Position numbers and translations under genes: made by a program
Shown here: positions 14,868 through 49,213 of the stretch, piece by piece
Layout: the number at the start of each line of letters is the position of its first letter
Position numbering within the stretch: the stretch's first letter is position 1
The notes under the pieces: generated by a model
The model's database searches: none
Seen by the model: the letters and a program-made list of their open reading frames with translations, nothing else
What the model was told of the DNA's origin: nothing
Origin: Candidatus Heimdallarchaeum endolithica
GTDB taxonomy: Archaea > Asgardarchaeota > Heimdallarchaeia > Heimdallarchaeales > Heimdallarchaeaceae
Reading direction: 5' to 3'
NCBI GenBank assembly: GCA_021513715.1
Contig: CP084167.1
Location: forward strand, 1,920,001-1,984,000
DNA: 64,000 bases

Positions 14868-15218
14868 ATGCCAAAGAATGTTTTAAATAAAAAGCCGTTA
14901 ACAATTACTGAAGCAATGGAGATACTTCAGAAAAGAAGTGAAGAAGACGAATTGTCATACTGGCAACGTGTCGCTTACGAGCATGCGATGCAACACGCAA
15001 GAGTAGATCCCAGTGATTCACGTAAAATTGTTGAAACTCTCATAAACGAATTTGAGATAACAGAATTAGCGGCTTTTTCTATTGCAAATGTACTCCCCAC
15101 AAGACCTGAAGAGTTAAAAGACTTACTCCAAAAAGAACCAAAGATTCTTACAGATTCAGAAATAAAAGCTATCTTTGATTTTCTTCGACCTTATGTTCAA
15201 AAATACCTTGGAGAGTAG
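14868..15218 (+). CDS. rpoF: RNA polymerase subunit F (Rpo4)
   Basis: ELSYWQR, IANVLP...EELK; conserved position after rpl21e. Confidence 0.9.
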   Translation: MPKNVLNKKPLTITEAMEILQKRSEEDELSYWQRVAYEHAMQHARVDPSDSRKIVETLINEFEITELAAFSIANVLPTRPEELKDLLQKEPKILTDSEIKAIFDFLRPYVQKYLGE

Positions 15219-15300
15219 ATGCAATAACCAGAATATAAATCTAAATTTAAAAGCCTTTTTTTAATAATATATGCAAAACTTTTTTTTATAGTATTACTTA

Positions 15301-16023
15301 TTGAAGGTGAGACATATGCAATATAATCCAGAACCAAATAAAGAAAAAAGTCAAAACCAAAGAGATACCCCTTTAGATTTTGAATTTGGAAAAATAAAAC
15401 ATGTCCGTCCTCCAAAAAAATTTGAAAGTAAAATATTAGTATTAGATTATCTACCTGAGGGAAAAGGTTTTAGTCAAGCCCCACGAAAAGAACCAATAAT
15501 TCTTGGGATTGGAACAAAGTGGTTCTCTTTGCTAGAAGTCTCGCTTCGTAAGAGAGGAAACTATACAAAATTTGCTGAATTAAAATTACCTCGCCCAGAT
15601 GAAGAGAACGGAGATACTCCACTAAAACGAGTTATAAGACAAATATCAACAGATGAACTAACCAATACGGCTTATGAAGCTCTAGATGAAGCTATTTGTC
15701 TAATAATCGGAAAAAATGAAAAAAGGTTTGTTACCTTCTTTAATAAAGCTCAACCCATTACTAATAAATTACACGCTTTAAAATTGATACCAGGTATTGG
15801 AAAACAGCTTATGTGGGAGATACTAGAGGAAAGAAAAAAACTTCCATTTGTTTCCTTTAAAGACATTGAAGATAGGGTAAAAGTTACAGACATTGCAAAA
15901 ATGATACAAAAAAGGATAAGACAAGAATTAGAAGGAGAGGAAAAGCATTTACTTTTTACTACAAAACTAGAACTTGACAAAAAAAGTGAATATAGGAAGA
16001 GATCTCGAGAACAAAAATATTAA
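15301..16023 (+). CDS. DUF655 family RNA-binding protein
   Basis: VLDYLP.G, FFNKAQPIT..LHALKLIPGIGK, PFVSFKDIEDRV; rpoF-DUF655-ksgA synteny. Confidence 0.88.
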   Translation: MKVRHMQYNPEPNKEKSQNQRDTPLDFEFGKIKHVRPPKKFESKILVLDYLPEGKGFSQAPRKEPIILGIGTKWFSLLEVSLRKRGNYTKFAELKLPRPDEENGDTPLKRVIRQISTDELTNTAYEALDEAICLIIGKNEKRFVTFFNKAQPITNKLHALKLIPGIGKQLMWEILEERKKLPFVSFKDIEDRVKVTDIAKMIQKRIRQELEGEEKHLLFTTKLELDKKSEYRKRSREQKY

Positions 16024-43367: not shown

Positions 43368-44597
43368 CTATATTACATTTTCTTGAACATGTGTTCCAGG
43401 AGGAATTATACTACCAGCTGCTATTTTCCTACCAGGAAAGATCATTGAACTCACTCCAACTATACTATTATCACCAATTATTGCTCCAAGTTTAGTAAAA
43501 CCGGTATCAACCATATGCCCATTAACTTCCATCTTGATGGATTTAATGGGTGTTTCAGTATTTATGGTCATCACATTAGTTGAAAGGATAGTATTTTCGC
43601 CTACAACACTATCACCAACATAACATAACCTGTAGATTTTTGTACCAGAAAATAGTACTGAATTTTTAATTTCGCTCCCAAAGCCTATTAAAGAATTTGA
43701 ATCTATTGATGTATGATCTCTCAATAACACATTGTTACCGATGTATGTATTAGGTCCAATATACAATGGACCAATTAGAACAGTACCAGAGCTTATTATT
43801 GTATTTTCGTCTATGATAACCACATTTTTTAGCACAACATTAGATTCAATTGTAACATTACTTGCGATTCTTGATTCTGTAAGTTTAGATAAAAGCAAAC
43901 GATTTGCTTCAATAATGTTCCATGGCTTTCCAATATCAATCCACTCTTTTTCCCATATTGCAGCAATTACTTTGTCACCTTTCTTTATTCTTGCATTAAT
44001 TGATTTAGGGATGTTAGGCTGAGTTTCCAATTCATCAAATATAGTAGTCTTTAGAACAAAACACCCTGCATCTATATAGTTACTTTTTGTATCGGTTTCA
44101 GTAGCTAAACCTACAGATTTCACATATCCCTTATAATCTATTTCTACAACTCCGAAATTTCCAGTATCACCTTTCAATGTCAATGCCATTGCCATGTCTG
44201 CTTGAGTGTTTTCATATGCGTTTAGTGTTCTTTGAATTAAACCTTTCTCAGCTATTATATCACTAAACAAGAGAAGAAACTCATTATCATTAGCTAAGTA
44301 TTTTTTTGCTGCAAGAAAAGCTGATTTAATATCATTTTCTTTACTCTGTTTAGCATATGAAATTGACAATCCAAATTCTGAACCTTTTTTGAAATAATCC
44401 TTTATTTGCTCTCCTTTATAGCCTGTAACAATTAATATTTTTGTTACTCCTAGTGTCTTTAGCTCTTCAATTATATACTGTAAAATTGGTTTTCCTAGTA
44501 GTTTAATCATAGGTTTTGGTTTAGTTTGGGTTAGTGGAAATAGTTCTCTACCCTCTCCACCAGCAAGAATAACTGCTTTTAATTCTTTTTTTACCAT
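43368..44597 (-). CDS. Sugar-1-phosphate nucleotidyltransferase/acetyltransferase (archaeal GlmU-like; start refined to 44597)
   Basis: AVILAGGEG..L.PLT..PKP, WIDIG.PW, hexapeptide repeats, KLGAIIGD. Confidence 0.88.
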   Translation of the reverse strand: MVKKELKAVILAGGEGRELFPLTQTKPKPMIKLLGKPILQYIIEELKTLGVTKILIVTGYKGEQIKDYFKKGSEFGLSISYAKQSKENDIKSAFLAAKKYLANDNEFLLLFSDIIAEKGLIQRTLNAYENTQADMAMALTLKGDTGNFGVVEIDYKGYVKSVGLATETDTKSNYIDAGCFVLKTTIFDELETQPNIPKSINARIKKGDKVIAAIWEKEWIDIGKPWNIIEANRLLLSKLTESRIASNVTIESNVVLKNVVIIDENTIISSGTVLIGPLYIGPNTYIGNNVLLRDHTSIDSNSLIGFGSEIKNSVLFSGTKIYRLCYVGDSVVGENTILSTNVMTINTETPIKSIKMEVNGHMVDTGFTKLGAIIGDNSIVGVSSMIFPGRKIAAGSIIPPGTHVQENVI

Positions 44598-44766
44598 ATT
44601 AGTTACTCCCTTATTTTTTATAATCACTACCTTTCTTTTATTTTTCTGTTGCTTAGATATCTTTTTACTGAATTTATCTCAAAAAAAGTTATATTTTTCT
44701 TCTTAAAAAGATTATGGAGCGAATGCAACTTTTATCTTTTTATATTAAGTTATAGGATATTTAACA

Positions 44767-46263
44767 ATGACAAGTATCTCGTGGAGTGGAAAAATATATA
44801 AAGGAGGAGCAAACTCCGGGTGGATTACCATTCCTTTAAATTTAAGAAAATATGTGAAATTGGAGCATTGGTATAATGTTCAGATAAATACAAAAAATAA
44901 AATAACTTTGAACACCACCCTATGCTTAAAAAAACTCAAATCTTCGTGGGGTTTTTACATTAAAAAGAGAATATGCGAGATAAATCAATTAATAGGTCAA
45001 AATGTTACAGTCATTATTTCTCCTTCTGAATTTTTTCAGAGGAAAATCTCGGCTTATAAAAGCATTCGTTTACCAAAAAGTATAGTTAAAATAAAAGGAA
45101 TAAAGAAATTTGACATATATGAAGTTGAAGTAGAAGTTTACTCAAGGACATATAGAGAGATAGTCTTAATATCAGTAATAGACCGTTCTACACGTACAAG
45201 TGCAGATGAGTATTATTTTACGCTGCGTTTGACAGATGTACACAAAGCAAAGGAGGCAAAAGTAAGACTATTAAGAAAAATTGAAAAAATAGATGCTTAT
45301 GAGAAAAAGAATTCAAAAAAGGAAATTTATCTTCCCAATCTCTTTCCTGAAGCAATAATAGGAAAAATAGATGATAGACAGATGATAATCTTTGATGGAA
45401 ATCATACTCCGGTAATAACTCCGATAATAATAAATATTGAAGAGTTCATCCATTATTTCGGTTGTTACCACGCAGACGGAACAAAATCAAGTTTTGGATG
45501 GAGTATAAATGCATCAACACCAGAACAAGCACATTACTATATCCTAACTTATAAAAAAATTGTACTCAATCCAAAGCTAAGTTTCGAGCTATCATACAGT
45601 AAAAAACCCTCAAACGTAGAAAATTACCTTATTACTACAGATATATTGATTAAATACTGGAAAAAGAATGCTTCAATTCAATTAAAAACTGACAAAATTA
45701 GGATTAAAGAAGCAAGATCAGAAAAAATAAAGAAATGGAATCCGTATGGAAGCATAAGGATACGTGATTTCCGGTCAATCGTTCTCAAGTTACATTTACG
45801 TATACATAACAAGATTCTAGATCATCTTAAAAATGAAATGAAGTTACAACAATTATGGCTATTTCTATTTGGAGTGCTAGAAGGAGATGGATATGTAGCA
45901 GGAGGAAAAAATCGTTTTGGGATTGGTTTTGCAACAAATATAGATGATAATATAATCAGTGAATTTCTCAATAAACTAAAAATAAAGTACACTATTGATG
46001 ATTCAAGGATTAAAAAAGGACTAGGAAAAGGTTTACAAATCAGGATTTGCTTAAATCAAGTGCTAAAAAATTTACCAGCAATATCTGAAAATATTTTCAA
46101 ATACTACCCAAAGCGAAGAATGATGTTTATCAAACGATTGATAAATAAGCCCAGTGTTAAAAAATTATTAGAATCAAATATCCATTTAGAAAATAAAGAT
46201 ACCAAAAAGGAATCGATTGAATGTCTACTTAAACTTAAAAAAGAATTAGAAAAAATTAAATAA
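44767..46263 (+). CDS. Free-standing double-motif LAGLIDADG protein with tandem AbrB/SpoVT-like N-terminal repeats
   Basis: FIHYFGCYHADG (about 45445-45480) and FLFGVLEGDG (about 45862-45891); N-terminal GWITIPLNLRK and SIRLPKSIVKIKGIKKFDIYEV AbrB-like units; no intein termini. Confidence 0.75.
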   Translation: MTSISWSGKIYKGGANSGWITIPLNLRKYVKLEHWYNVQINTKNKITLNTTLCLKKLKSSWGFYIKKRICEINQLIGQNVTVIISPSEFFQRKISAYKSIRLPKSIVKIKGIKKFDIYEVEVEVYSRTYREIVLISVIDRSTRTSADEYYFTLRLTDVHKAKEAKVRLLRKIEKIDAYEKKNSKKEIYLPNLFPEAIIGKIDDRQMIIFDGNHTPVITPIIINIEEFIHYFGCYHADGTKSSFGWSINASTPEQAHYYILTYKKIVLNPKLSFELSYSKKPSNVENYLITTDILIKYWKKNASIQLKTDKIRIKEARSEKIKKWNPYGSIRIRDFRSIVLKLHLRIHNKILDHLKNEMKLQQLWLFLFGVLEGDGYVAGGKNRFGIGFATNIDDNIISEFLNKLKIKYTIDDSRIKKGLGKGLQIRICLNQVLKNLPAISENIFKYYPKRRMMFIKRLINKPSVKKLLESNIHLENKDTKKESIECLLKLKKELEKIK

Positions 46264-46269
46264 ATAAAC

Positions 46270-48096
46270 TTACAGTACTGTTACACTTTTAGCGAGGTTT
46301 CTTGGTTTGTCAGGCGAGTATCCTCTCTTTACTGCAGTATAATAAGCTAGCAATTGTAGGGGAACAACATATGGAATTGTTGAGAATATTTCAGAGTACC
46401 CTTGAGGAATTTTAAAACTCCAAGTTACAAGGTTTTTTATTTCATCATCATTTTCTTCAATAACACCGATAGTAGATGCGCCTCTAGCATTCATTTCCAT
46501 AATATTAGATTGAATCAGCCTATAGGTGTGATCCTTTGGTGCAATAAATACAACAGGAAAATCTTTTTCTACCAAGGCGATTGGACCATGTTTTGATTCT
46601 CCAGCTGGATATGATTCACAGTGAATGTAAGATATCTCTTTCATTTTCAAAGCTCCTTCATTTGCTGTTTGCACATTTATTCCACGCGCTAAATAAAAAC
46701 CACTTTTCTTTTTCGAAAACCAGTTAGCAACTGTTCTAGCTTGAACTTCATTGTTTGTAATAGTTGTTTTAACTATTTTTGGGAGCTGATTGAATTTTTT
46801 TCTGTGAGATTCATACTCTGTTTTATTAAAAGAACCACTTAAAAGCCCTAGTTCTAATCCTACATCCCAGTTAGCTATTGTTTGTGCAAGATATGTTTTT
46901 GTTGCTGCGACTCCAATCTCAGGCCCTGCGTGGAGATATATAACCTCATCTGAATATCTAGTAATTGTACTACCTACCACATTTACTATAGAGAGAATCG
47001 ATGCACCTTGTTCTTTAGCTTTTTTAATACCTAAAATTGTATCCATTGTTTCTCCAGATTGACTCACAGGAACTACAACTGTATTCTCATCAATTAAATT
47101 TAAAATTGATTCAAATTCAGAAGCAATTATTGACTGACTTAGTTTTTTATTAAATTTTCTTACTAAATACTCTCCAGTTAATGTTGAATAATATGCTGTT
47201 CCTGCAGCAACAAAAAAAATTCTTTCTGCTACATAAATTTTTTCAGCTACCTTTTTTACAGATTTTTGTTTCATTCGGACATAGTTATACAAAGAATTAG
47301 GTTGTTCATGGATTTCTTTTAACATAAAATGCGGATAACCTGCTTTTTGAGCCATTTCTGCTTTCCAAGAAACAGTATAGGGAGCACGTGTTATCTGTTC
47401 CATAGATATCAGATTAAAAATGTTATACCCATCACTTCTTATCTCTACAAACTCATTGTCGTGTAAGAGTACAACTTGTTGAGTTTGATCAAGAAATGCA
47501 GGAATGTCGCTAGCAACGAAGATTCTATTTGAATTCAAGCCTATTACTAATGGGCTGTCCTTTTTGGCACAATAAATTCTTTGAGGAGCATTCGTACTTA
47601 TTACACAAATTGCATATGTCCCTACTAGCTGTTTTATAGCCTTAATTACAGCTTCACGGAAACTCAAGTGCTCATTAACAAAAAAATCTTCAATCAAGTG
47701 ACTGATTACTTCTGTATCAGTCTCAGAACTGAATGTATGCCCCTTTTCTTTTAAATTACGTCTTAATTCCTGAAAATTTTCAATAATCCCATTATGAACA
47801 ACGGCTATTTTTCCATCGCAACTAACATGAGGATGAGCATTTATTTTTGAAGGTGGACCATGTGTAGCCCAACGTGTGTGTCCGATTGCAATCTTGCCAG
47901 ATATAGGGGCGATATCAATTTTTTCTATTACTTCATTTATTTTTCCTTTATCTTTTTGAATAATAAGTTTGTCATCTTCTATAATTGCAACCCCTAAACT
48001 ATCATATCCCCTATACTCCAATTTTTGAAGAGCATGGATAATTTCTTCACCGATTTTTGTCTCATTTTTTTGAATTATTCCTACAATTCCACACAT
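46270..48096 (-). CDS. glmS: Glutamine-fructose-6-phosphate transaminase
   Basis: MCGIVG, LEYRGYDS, GHTRWATHG, SQSGET, VAATK, KPRNLAKSVTV. Confidence 0.97.
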   Translation of the reverse strand: MCGIVGIIQKNETKIGEEIIHALQKLEYRGYDSLGVAIIEDDKLIIQKDKGKINEVIEKIDIAPISGKIAIGHTRWATHGPPSKINAHPHVSCDGKIAVVHNGIIENFQELRRNLKEKGHTFSSETDTEVISHLIEDFFVNEHLSFREAVIKAIKQLVGTYAICVISTNAPQRIYCAKKDSPLVIGLNSNRIFVASDIPAFLDQTQQVVLLHDNEFVEIRSDGYNIFNLISMEQITRAPYTVSWKAEMAQKAGYPHFMLKEIHEQPNSLYNYVRMKQKSVKKVAEKIYVAERIFFVAAGTAYYSTLTGEYLVRKFNKKLSQSIIASEFESILNLIDENTVVVPVSQSGETMDTILGIKKAKEQGASILSIVNVVGSTITRYSDEVIYLHAGPEIGVAATKTYLAQTIANWDVGLELGLLSGSFNKTEYESHRKKFNQLPKIVKTTITNNEVQARTVANWFSKKKSGFYLARGINVQTANEGALKMKEISYIHCESYPAGESKHGPIALVEKDFPVVFIAPKDHTYRLIQSNIMEMNARGASTIGVIEENDDEIKNLVTWSFKIPQGYSEIFSTIPYVVPLQLLAYYTAVKRGYSPDKPRNLAKSVTVL

Positions 48097-48185
48097 TTTT
48101 TTCCCTATTAAAGCAACATTAACTGTTTTTTACTCAAGAACAGTCAATTAATGTTATTCATAAAGGTTTCGCTATACAAATTAAG

Positions 48186-49204
48186 TGTATACTCCACTCA
48201 CATTGGTAACAAATAAATAGAAGTGGGTTACGTGGGTAAGTGATTAAATATGAATAAGACCGAACGTAACCTGGAGAAACTAAGAAAAATTGTAGTTAAA
48301 AAAGCTTTGGAAGGAGAGAAGATAAAAGAGATAGCTCACAAGTATATGGTGAGTAGGAAGTTTGTGTATAAGTGGTTGAAGAGGTTCAGAGAGAACCCTG
48401 AAGGAGAATGGTTGGTGGAAAGATAGATCCTCCAGACCAAAAACTATACACAGGAAAGTGGATGAGGAGTTAAAAGAGAGGATAAGGGAGTTAAGAATAA
48501 AACAAGGAATGAATGTGGAGAAGATAGCTTATTTGTTGAAGAGAGAAGGAAAAGCACTCTCTCAGACGACAGTGACGAAAGTAATAAAAGAGTTAGGTCT
48601 TCCTTTATGGGTCAATAGAAAAAAGAGGAAGAGACCTCGATACAAGAGTTTTGAACGTCAAAAACCTAACGAACTCTGGCAAATAGATGTGAAAGGACCA
48701 TTCTGGGTAGAAGAACAGGGACAACATCTCCATCTCATAACCTTGATAGACGACCACTCACGATTCTGTCTGGGAGCTAAATTCCACCCTTTTGCACCAA
48801 AAAAAGAGCAGATAATAAATCTACTAGAGGAAGCAATAAAAGAGTACGGTTACCCCGAGTCTATCCTCACGGACAATGGAGCACTCTTCTCTTCCGTTAG
48901 AGGAGGAACAAGTACCTTCTCCCGTTGGTGTCAAACAGAAGGAATAAAACACATCAGAGCTAGAGTTTTTCACCCCGAAACATGTGGAAAAGTAGAAAGA
49001 CTACATGGGACCCAACAATCATCCGTGAGATGGAAAGATTAGGTCTAAAATACTGCAACGTAGATCTCTCCTACTACCGCTCTTACTACAATTTTAGTCG
49101 TCCTCACCAATCTCTTAACTTCCTCACCCCAGGAGAAAGATTTATGAATCACCCCTATGTTTCTCTAGTACCCAAAAGTGTAACCCAAGTCTATTGAGTA
49201 AACA
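48186..49204 (+). mobile_element. IS481-family insertion sequence, copy 2 (1019 bp), transposase frameshifted
   Basis: Near-identical to 36740-37749; same termini; 14-bp direct repeat CTATACAAATTAAG at 48172-48185 and 49205-49218. Confidence 0.93.
48250..49197 (+). pseudogene. IS481 transposase pseudogene (two small insertions)
   Basis: +4 bp (TGGT duplication, about 48409-48416) gives TAG at 48424-48426; +5 bp CCCAA at about 49011-49015. Confidence 0.88.
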
Positions 49205-49213
49205 CTATACAAA

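Follow-up and report, generated by a model that had tools for sequence, protein, structure and literature searches.

Free-standing homing endonucleases are textbook elements of phages and organelles, and the phage seg and mob genes are known for marker exclusion. To our knowledge, free-standing homing endonucleases are barely documented in archaeal chromosomes and none is known to use glmS. The gene described here, hereafter called HEG (homing endonuclease gene), lies directly behind glmS in a stretch of 64,000 nucleotides, hereafter the window, from Candidatus Heimdallarchaeum endolithica (assembly GCA_021513715.1, contig CP084167.1, positions 1,920,001 to 1,984,000 of the forward strand). 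It is fairly likely that this gene by itself forms a selfish element: a free-standing gene for a LAGLIDADG homing endonuclease, with its home in the DNA that directly follows the glmS stop codon.

The phage enzymes SegF and SegB of T4, and MobE, are likewise encoded by lone nuclease genes wedged between conserved genes, with no intron or intein. Their presence likewise varies between close relatives, and the spread expected is by cleavage of empty alleles with co-conversion of flanking markers. These enzymes are of the GIY-YIG or HNH type and are found in phage genomes, whereas the enzyme of the window combines a LAGLIDADG domain with AbrB-like barrels and is found in archaeal chromosomes, at one site across phyla. 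The 'intronless homing' of SegF, SegB and MobE is described in PMC5867893, which cites Belle et al. 2002, and in PMC2790892. A free-standing LAGLIDADG_2 gene in the glycosylation islands of Haloferax has been proposed as a driver of gene conversion (PMC5867893). Also free-standing, in an archaeal chromosome and near sugar-metabolism genes, it is the nearest archaeal precedent, but it belongs to another Pfam family and has no AbrB module, and neither a fixed, conserved target nor a distribution across phyla has been shown for it.

The archaeal single-chain LAGLIDADG enzymes I-DmoI, I-Tsp061I, PI-PfuI and the Tli VMA intein share the two-lobed fold (Z 12.4-14.4) and both acidic residues with the window protein. 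They sit in rRNA introns or inteins, whereas the window protein has its own start and stop codons, adds an N-terminal module of 178 amino acids and a C-terminal helical extension with the motif YYPKRR, and falls below Pfam thresholds. WhiA and HO likewise join a LAGLIDADG scaffold to an extra DNA-binding domain, and WhiA is a structural neighbour of the window protein (Z 12.1). WhiA and the maturases have lost the catalytic acidic residues of LAGLIDADG enzymes, and WhiA is universally inherited in its clade, whereas in the HEG family the residues are invariant, inheritance is scattered (7 changes in 25 genomes) and decayed copies exist. The known AbrB, SpoVT and MazE members are small stand-alone regulators or antitoxin domains, whereas the corresponding module of the window protein is fused to a nuclease; its first part superposes on the single-chain tandem barrel of PhS018 (2glw, Z 10.6), and the first half of its second part shares the AbrB loop signature.

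The choice of site recalls Tn7, whose TnsD protein reads the conserved 3' coding end of glmS at attTn7. Both use the same landmark, insert just past the stop codon and leave the essential gene intact. Tn7 has TnsABCD, transposon ends and a 5-bp target duplication, none of which is present at the HEG segment, and it spreads by transposition in bacteria, whereas the HEG is archaeal and presumably spreads by nuclease-triggered gene conversion. The resemblance is in site choice only, and the machinery is unrelated.

A full-text literature search returned no paper combining the terms homing endonuclease, glmS and free-standing, and none joining LAGLIDADG and AbrB. Asgard and DPANN papers that mention LAGLIDADG concern introns, inteins or rRNA insertions, as judged from their titles and abstracts, and the description of the Ca. 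Heimdallarchaeum genomes (Wu et al. 2022, PMC8813620) mentions neither LAGLIDADG nor glmS. An earlier reading made from the letters of the window alone, hereafter the sequence-only reading, had not recognised the architecture; a literature search found no paper on an AbrB-LAGLIDADG architecture or on a HEG targeting glmS. The principle is known; the architecture, the host range and the target are new.

The locus consists of the following features, with positions given in the window.

44767..46263, + strand: free-standing HEG (protein P0001, 498 amino acids), from the open reading frame list and genome comparison; the sole gene of the segment missing from a same-genus genome
46270..48096, - strand: GlmS, 608 amino acids, with GATase_6/7 and SIS domains
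about 46270-46332, - strand: 3' end of glmS, the constant landmark of the element and its presumed recognition region
44598..46276, no strand: segment without counterpart in the same-genus genome G026, which has 161 bp instead (genome comparison)
43368..44627, - strand: GlmU-like sugar-1-phosphate nucleotidyltransferase/acetyltransferase, with NTP_transferase and Hexapep domains
44628..44766, no strand: intergenic region from which the GlmU-like gene and the HEG diverge, read from the sequence

The closed 3.08-Mb genome G026 is collinear with the window on both sides of this segment, with 87-91% nucleotide identity, and contains 161 bp in place of these 1,679 bp. Towards glmS, homology is regained no more than 6 bp from its stop codon; towards glmU, spacer motifs can be recognised again from about 34 bp before the HEG start codon, so the two genomes differ by one open reading frame (ORF) with a short leader. 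Among HEG-free genomes of the order, glmU follows directly after glmS, usually about 40-70 bp away (154 bp in G026), and the HEG therefore splits an operon-like glmS-glmU pair while pointing the opposite way. The empty junction for which the sequence-only reading had proposed a search was thus found, cleanly, within the genus. Nothing was integrated at glmS in the HEG-free relatives examined. A candidate case of polymorphism within a population, a bin (G111) with one occupied and one empty glmS locus (C113, C115; L022, L036), was rejected; the two glmS copies are 76% identical, and the loci represent two organisms in the bin or two paralogues.

The ORF of the HEG is intact, starts with ATG and encodes 498 amino acids with a predicted isoelectric point (pI) of 9.84 (93 lysine and arginine versus 49 aspartate and glutamate residues). 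It is convergent with glmS, their stop codons (46261-46263 and 46270-46272) being 6 bp apart, has the same GC content as its surroundings, and is single-copy in the closed genome of 3,326,783 bp (3.33 Mb). No intein termini were found in the ORF; with its own start and stop codons and its intergenic position, the gene belongs to the free-standing class rather than to intron- or intein-borne endonuclease genes. Apart from AT-rich chance matches the repeat search gave nothing: the HEG has neither inverted nor direct terminal repeats and no target duplication, and the inserted segment, which holds one ORF, contains no transposase or integrase. The sequence-only reading had described a basic protein of this length on the opposite strand, 6 bp from the glmS stop, between a GlmU-like gene and glmS and without intein termini or terminal repeats. 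ORF coordinates, pI, domain matches of the neighbours and the repeat search agree with it on each count, and the four peptides it quoted are all present (FGCYHADG from residue 231, FGVLEGDG from 368, GKIYKGG...LRK from 8 and RKISAYK...EVEV from 92).

A HMMER scan of 1.84 billion representative sequences found just 114 clusters of the HEG family. The named records fall into two groups, one from Heimdallarchaeota with 38-50% identity to the window protein, and one with 24-33% identity from DPANN archaea (Woese-, Nano-, Micr- and Aenigmatarchaeota) together with records titled as bacteria of the candidate phyla radiation (CPR) or as Methanosarcinales. The GlmS proteins of the records with CPR or Methanosarcinales titles cluster with DPANN GlmS. 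Seven loci (L073, L079, L086, L091, L093, L102 and L103) come from records titled CPR/Patescibacteria, 'bacterium' or Peregrinibacteria; for the four present in the GlmS tree (L079, L086, L102 and L103) both GlmS and the endonuclease cluster with DPANN archaea, which points to mislabelled bins or real cross-domain transfer. Relatives of the HEG were not found in viral contigs. Carriers make up 15 of the 201 sampled genomes of the phylum of the window and 11 of the 21 of its family, and a closed genome of the same genus is without the gene.

As in the window, the HEG adjoins the glmS stop codon in 50 of 51 further homologue loci, with a gap of 6-130 bp; the remaining locus lies on a contig with at most about 218 bp of upstream flank. 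All 13 Heimdall loci with flanking sequence have the HEG convergent with glmS, stop to stop, and all DPANN-type loci with flanking sequence have it co-directional, 44-130 bp behind glmS. Depending on the locus, the HEG is flanked on its other side by glmU, glmM, a HAD hydrolase, a GNAT acetyltransferase or a large unknown protein. The survey of neighbourhoods that the sequence-only reading had proposed thus left glmS as the only constant partner. That reading had also suggested invasion of the amino-sugar operon; in 50 of 51 further loci, and in both orientations, the association is specifically with the glmS 3' end and not with the operon in general.

The loci differ in what surrounds or extends the endonuclease. 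One Heimdall genus (L021 3995-8374, G045; P0097, P0175, P0177 and P0179) has the endonuclease as the C-terminal third of an ORF of 1,417-1,598 amino acids, the N-terminal 910-970 amino acids being rich in leucine, phenylalanine and isoleucine. This 945-amino-acid extension had no Pfam, Atlas or AbrB-profile match. It is a separate, Heimdall-only protein, sometimes fused in frame to the endonuclease; it also occurs as a separate gene directly upstream (L113, 888 amino acids followed by 568 amino acids), with paralogues elsewhere (P0181), and some long forms bear a third copy of the first N-terminal barrel (N1, below). Two further loci (L061 and L064, the same as G151 and G154) have about 770 bp between the glmU start and the HEG start, compared with 120-140 bp in the window and L072; the longer spacer may include pieces left over from the N-terminal extension or from a different gene. 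The contigs of DPANN-type carriers hold more free-standing LAGLIDADG_2/3 genes between housekeeping genes (L028 2212-3189 and 1-279; L030 7846-8610; another locus, 15052-15903), one of them between a gene for a GlmU hexapeptide domain and the glmS start, which suggests that intergenic LAGLIDADG genes may be common in small DPANN genomes.

Copies of the gene come, go and decay. The copy in G107 has three in-frame stop codons with both LAGLIDADG motifs kept, and the copies in G003 and G157 are truncated to about 375 amino acids, the second LAGLIDADG lobe being lost. On the GlmS tree of 25 genomes of the order, presence or absence changes 7 times, at least 6 changes are forced by supported branches, and five close pairs differ in carrier status. 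Shuffled carrier labels gave a mean of 8 changes, so the observed scatter follows the tree no better than shuffled labels do.

For 34 contigs a HEG tree was compared with a tree of the adjacent GlmS, and in both clades the two disagreed at nodes with strong support. In the approximately unbiased (AU) test the HEG alignment rejected two GlmS clades (p 7e-6 and 3e-5) and the GlmS alignment rejected two HEG clades (p 4e-6 and 9e-45), with large likelihood differences of 68-223 log units. The ratio of nonsynonymous to synonymous divergence (dN/dS) of the HEG was 0.21 against relatives 80% and 98% identical, compared with 0.05-0.12 for glmS, and its dS equalled that of the neighbouring glmS (0.52 and 0.48, respectively). 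With dN/dS at about 0.2, the substitution pattern indicates that the gene is kept functional under purifying selection.

The last 21-60 nucleotides of glmS were much more diverged than the rest of the gene in pairs including a carrier (identity 0.63 versus 0.91, and 0.67 versus 0.89), and in another such pair identity was 0.80 over the last 30 nucleotides versus 0.97 between positions -300 and -60. The pattern was the opposite in three of the four pairs without a carrier, and the glmS tail of one carrier is a visible mosaic of two lineages. These observations are suggestive of co-conversion of the glmS 3' end with the HEG.

The C-terminal two thirds of the protein contain the following features.

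45301..46260, + strand: two-lobed single-chain LAGLIDADG endonuclease domain with a C-terminal helical extension (amino acids 179-498), from the model, Foldseek and VIA
45451..45486, + strand: LAGLIDADG motif 1 (HYFGCYHADGTK, amino acids 229-240) with catalytic Asp237, from the alignments
45862..45891, + strand: LAGLIDADG motif 2 (FLFGVLEGDG, amino acids 366-375) with catalytic Asp374, from the alignments
46096..46119, + strand: family-specific invariant motif F.YYPKRR (amino acids 444-451) at the start of the C-terminal helical extension, from the alignments and the model

Structures were modelled from alignments of 87 full-length homologues, separately for the N- and C-terminal parts, and conservation was read from two alignments, of 25 and 87 sequences. 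The AlphaFold model of residues 177-498 (predicted local distance difference test, pLDDT, 94; predicted template-modelling score 0.92) has two alpha-beta-beta-alpha-beta-beta-alpha lobes packed via two LAGLIDADG helices. The best 50 Foldseek matches of this model were all LAGLIDADG enzymes or maturases, and VIA placed it near PI-PfuI (Z 14.4), the Tli VMA intein (13.9), I-DmoI (12.8), I-Tsp061I (12.4) and WhiA (12.1). In motif 1, Y230, G232, D237 and G238 are invariant in both alignments, and T239 is invariant among the 25 sequences and at least 90% conserved among the 87. In motif 2, G369, E372, G373, D374 and G375 are invariant in both. The invariance of D237, D374 and YYPKRR extends across all 87 homologues, which reach down to 23% identity, so the two LAGLIDADG-type helices with retained acidic residues noticed in the sequence-only reading stand. 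The match of the protein to Pfam LAGLIDADG_3 (PF14528) was 17 bits, under the cut-off of 22.5; there was no match in NCBIfam and no defence-model match in PADLOC, and PHROGs gave nothing meaningful. The model and the conserved residues suggest that the HEG protein would cleave DNA site-specifically.

The N-terminal part is divided into two domains.

44767..45030, + strand: N1 (amino acids 1-88), a complete single-chain swapped-hairpin (AbrB-like) beta-barrel of two related half-units, from the model (pLDDT 93), VIA and hhalign
45031..45300, + strand: N2 (amino acids 89-178), first half with the canonical AbrB signature (..RxxIP..IK..D), second half divergent beta structure, from the family profile and profile-profile comparison

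N1 and N2 are each basic (pI about 9.9). The AlphaFold model of residues 1-180 had pLDDT 93, and its residues 1-87 superposed on PhS018 (2glw) and PG0164 (2d9r) with a VIA Z of 10.6 and a root-mean-square deviation of 2.2-2.4 over 81-85 residues; the VIA rows that followed had Z values of at most 7.4. Foldseek gave no match to the N-terminal model at E <= 1e-3, and the fold was clear only from the exhaustive VIA search. Against the PDB the family profile matched 2glw with E 1e-7 and AbrB/SpoVT regulators with 5e-4 to 4e-3, the latter via window residues of about 92-130. Profile-profile comparison with hhalign related the two half-units of N1 to each other (probability 95.5%, E 1.5e-8) and the second of these to the first half of N2 (95%, E 3.5e-8), and detected no similarity of the second half of N2 (residues 132-178) to the other half-units. 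From the superposition, the profile matches and the half-unit comparison, in which the second half of N2 stayed unmatched, the N-terminus is modelled as one complete AbrB-like barrel followed by a second domain, of which the first half is a canonical AbrB half-unit and the second is divergent.

The DNA-binding loop signature (G-R-x-x-I-P ... K-x-G-D) is present. MazE_antitoxin (PF04014) matched 4 of 25 family members, with a best E value of 1.8e-6, and for LAGLIDADG_3 likewise only 4 of 25 members reached E <= 0.01. The sequence-only reading had proposed up to four swapped-hairpin units of about 35-45 amino acids, which fits the three clear AbrB-type half-units and one divergent segment observed. 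Separate modelling of the two parts, which it had recommended, recovered both the barrel and the LAGLIDADG fold, and the tandem-AbrB and double-LAGLIDADG architecture it had named was thereby confirmed by AlphaFold models, VIA, Foldseek and the family profile. PI-SceI and I-TevI have extra DNA-recognition regions, and by analogy with these the barrels may serve as an accessory DNA-binding module.

If the HEG is a homing endonuclease gene, its C-terminal two-lobed LAGLIDADG domain would cut the empty glmS 3' junction in a genome lacking it, and recombinational repair off the occupied copy would write in the HEG together with a short stretch of the donor glmS 3' end. Insertion would destroy the site, and carriers would thereby be immune. 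The two AbrB-like barrels would be an added DNA-binding module that most likely extends or anchors recognition of the conserved end of glmS; they may bind the promoter of the element itself as well. A position behind an essential, highly conserved gene would offer a harmless and universally available landing site, by the same logic as attTn7. We infer the cleavage, the exact target, the copying by repair and the role of the barrels in this scheme.

The family bears the genetic signature of homing, namely a fixed site, empty alleles, decay and a horizontal history. The homing endonuclease reading is favoured because the gene has a history different from that of glmS and yet a fixed position, occurs there in both orientations, comes and goes, decays, and has an intact active site. 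Such a combination of fixed site, conflicting history, decay and scatter is not what one would expect from a host regulator. Several points weigh against homing. We know of no biochemical activity for any member of the family, and of no demonstration in Heimdall or DPANN lineages of the cell-to-cell DNA transfer that homing requires. The left, glmU-side boundary of the inserted segment is blurred by AT-rich divergence, and the empty sites did not reveal a conserved nucleotide target: HEG-free genomes differ from one another at the wobble positions of the last glmS codons. The groups in the AU tests were picked after inspection of the trees, tree searches were of the 'quick' type and most loci are from metagenome-assembled genomes, while the divergence of the glmS 3' end was measured in 14 pairs only, with one carrier-free pair also showing it. 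Strict linkage to one gene and purifying selection would also be expected of a dedicated regulator, and in DPANN archaea the HEG lies inside a co-directional glmS-glmM-glmU cluster of very small genomes.

These last points lead to the alternative that the protein is a domesticated LAGLIDADG/AbrB regulator of glmS or the amino-sugar genes, acting through DNA by its AbrB barrels or, maturase-like, on the 3' end of glmS mRNA. Linkage to glmS is invariable across two distant archaeal groups, dN/dS is about 0.2, units of the AbrB type typify transcription factors and antitoxins, the glm clusters of small DPANN genomes contain the gene in the same direction and with tight spacing, and WhiA and the bI3 maturase are among the structural neighbours. 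We nevertheless regard this as unlikely: a genome of the same genus and roughly half of the family lack the gene and have glmS-glmU intact; some copies are pseudogenised or truncated; the gene and glmS have conflicting histories; both catalytic aspartates are invariant, unlike in WhiA and the maturases; and the gene keeps its place next to the glmS stop although different clades carry it in opposite orientations. Of the two alternatives offered by the sequence-only reading, the empty site in the congener, the scatter, the decayed copies and the tree conflict favour the free-standing homing endonuclease and disfavour the domesticated regulator. The evidence for a nuclease at a fixed site would equally suit an active site-specific nuclease retained for a benefit to the carrier, such as exclusion of DNA with the empty allele or guarding of the glmS attachment site. 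The 3' ends of glmS are known attachment sites of Tn7-like elements, and Heimdallarchaeum genomes are rich in mobile elements (PMC8813620). This explanation is less probable still, as no PADLOC defence model matched, no viral copies were found, nothing was integrated at glmS in the HEG-free relatives, and decayed copies speak against a strong benefit. A larger integrative element, a transposon or island with a glmS attachment site of which the HEG would be cargo or a remnant, is very improbable. Islands next to glmS are common in bacteria, and in one genus the HEG is preceded by, or fused to, a large unknown protein, but the indel relative to G026 consists of this ORF alone, there is no transposase, integrase, terminal repeat or target duplication, and glmS is the sole constant partner in 50 of 51 further loci.

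Beyond the homing endonuclease reading itself, we give an even chance to the wider proposal that the family is an archaeal, protein-only counterpart of the Tn7 strategy: an undescribed family of free-standing LAGLIDADG enzymes with tandem AbrB units. The enzymes would read the 3' end of glmS, and the family would have moved repeatedly inside Heimdall-group Asgard and DPANN archaea and crossed from one group to the other on at least one occasion. Such a family would show two unrelated kinds of mobile DNA converging on the same safe harbour, and LAGLIDADG nucleases recruiting AbrB-type barrels as extra DNA readers. It would also show that DNA exchange and homologous repair operate in Heimdall-group Asgard and DPANN archaea, where direct genetics is not yet possible, and, if the proposal holds, gene conversion would be a working route of gene flow in these uncultured lineages. 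Heimdall-group Asgard archaea have been reported as the clade phylogenetically closest to eukaryotes (PMC8813620). In these populations the presence/absence polymorphism of the HEG offers a ready marker of gene flow. The enzyme is also a candidate for a nuclease with a long site and a recognition module that can be separated, and, if the proposal is true, it would provide a natural scaffold for a 'safe-harbour' nuclease, its extra reader domain being modular.

In the intergenic region upstream of the HEG an AT-rich, TATA-like box (TTTATATT) lies about 26 bp before the start codon, and from its sequence the HEG promoter may be placed there. The sigma-70 promoter and terminator scan was uninformative for an archaeon. 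The real start of the GlmU-like gene is probably the ATG at 44597. On the other side of glmS, a segment of about 1 kb upstream of its start codon (window 48185-49205) is missing both from G026 and from a contig of a 98%-identical strain (L110). The segment contains an ORF (48458-49042) with an rve integrase core (E 4e-18), and because of this core and its absence from the two relatives it is a recent insertion-sequence (IS) insertion.

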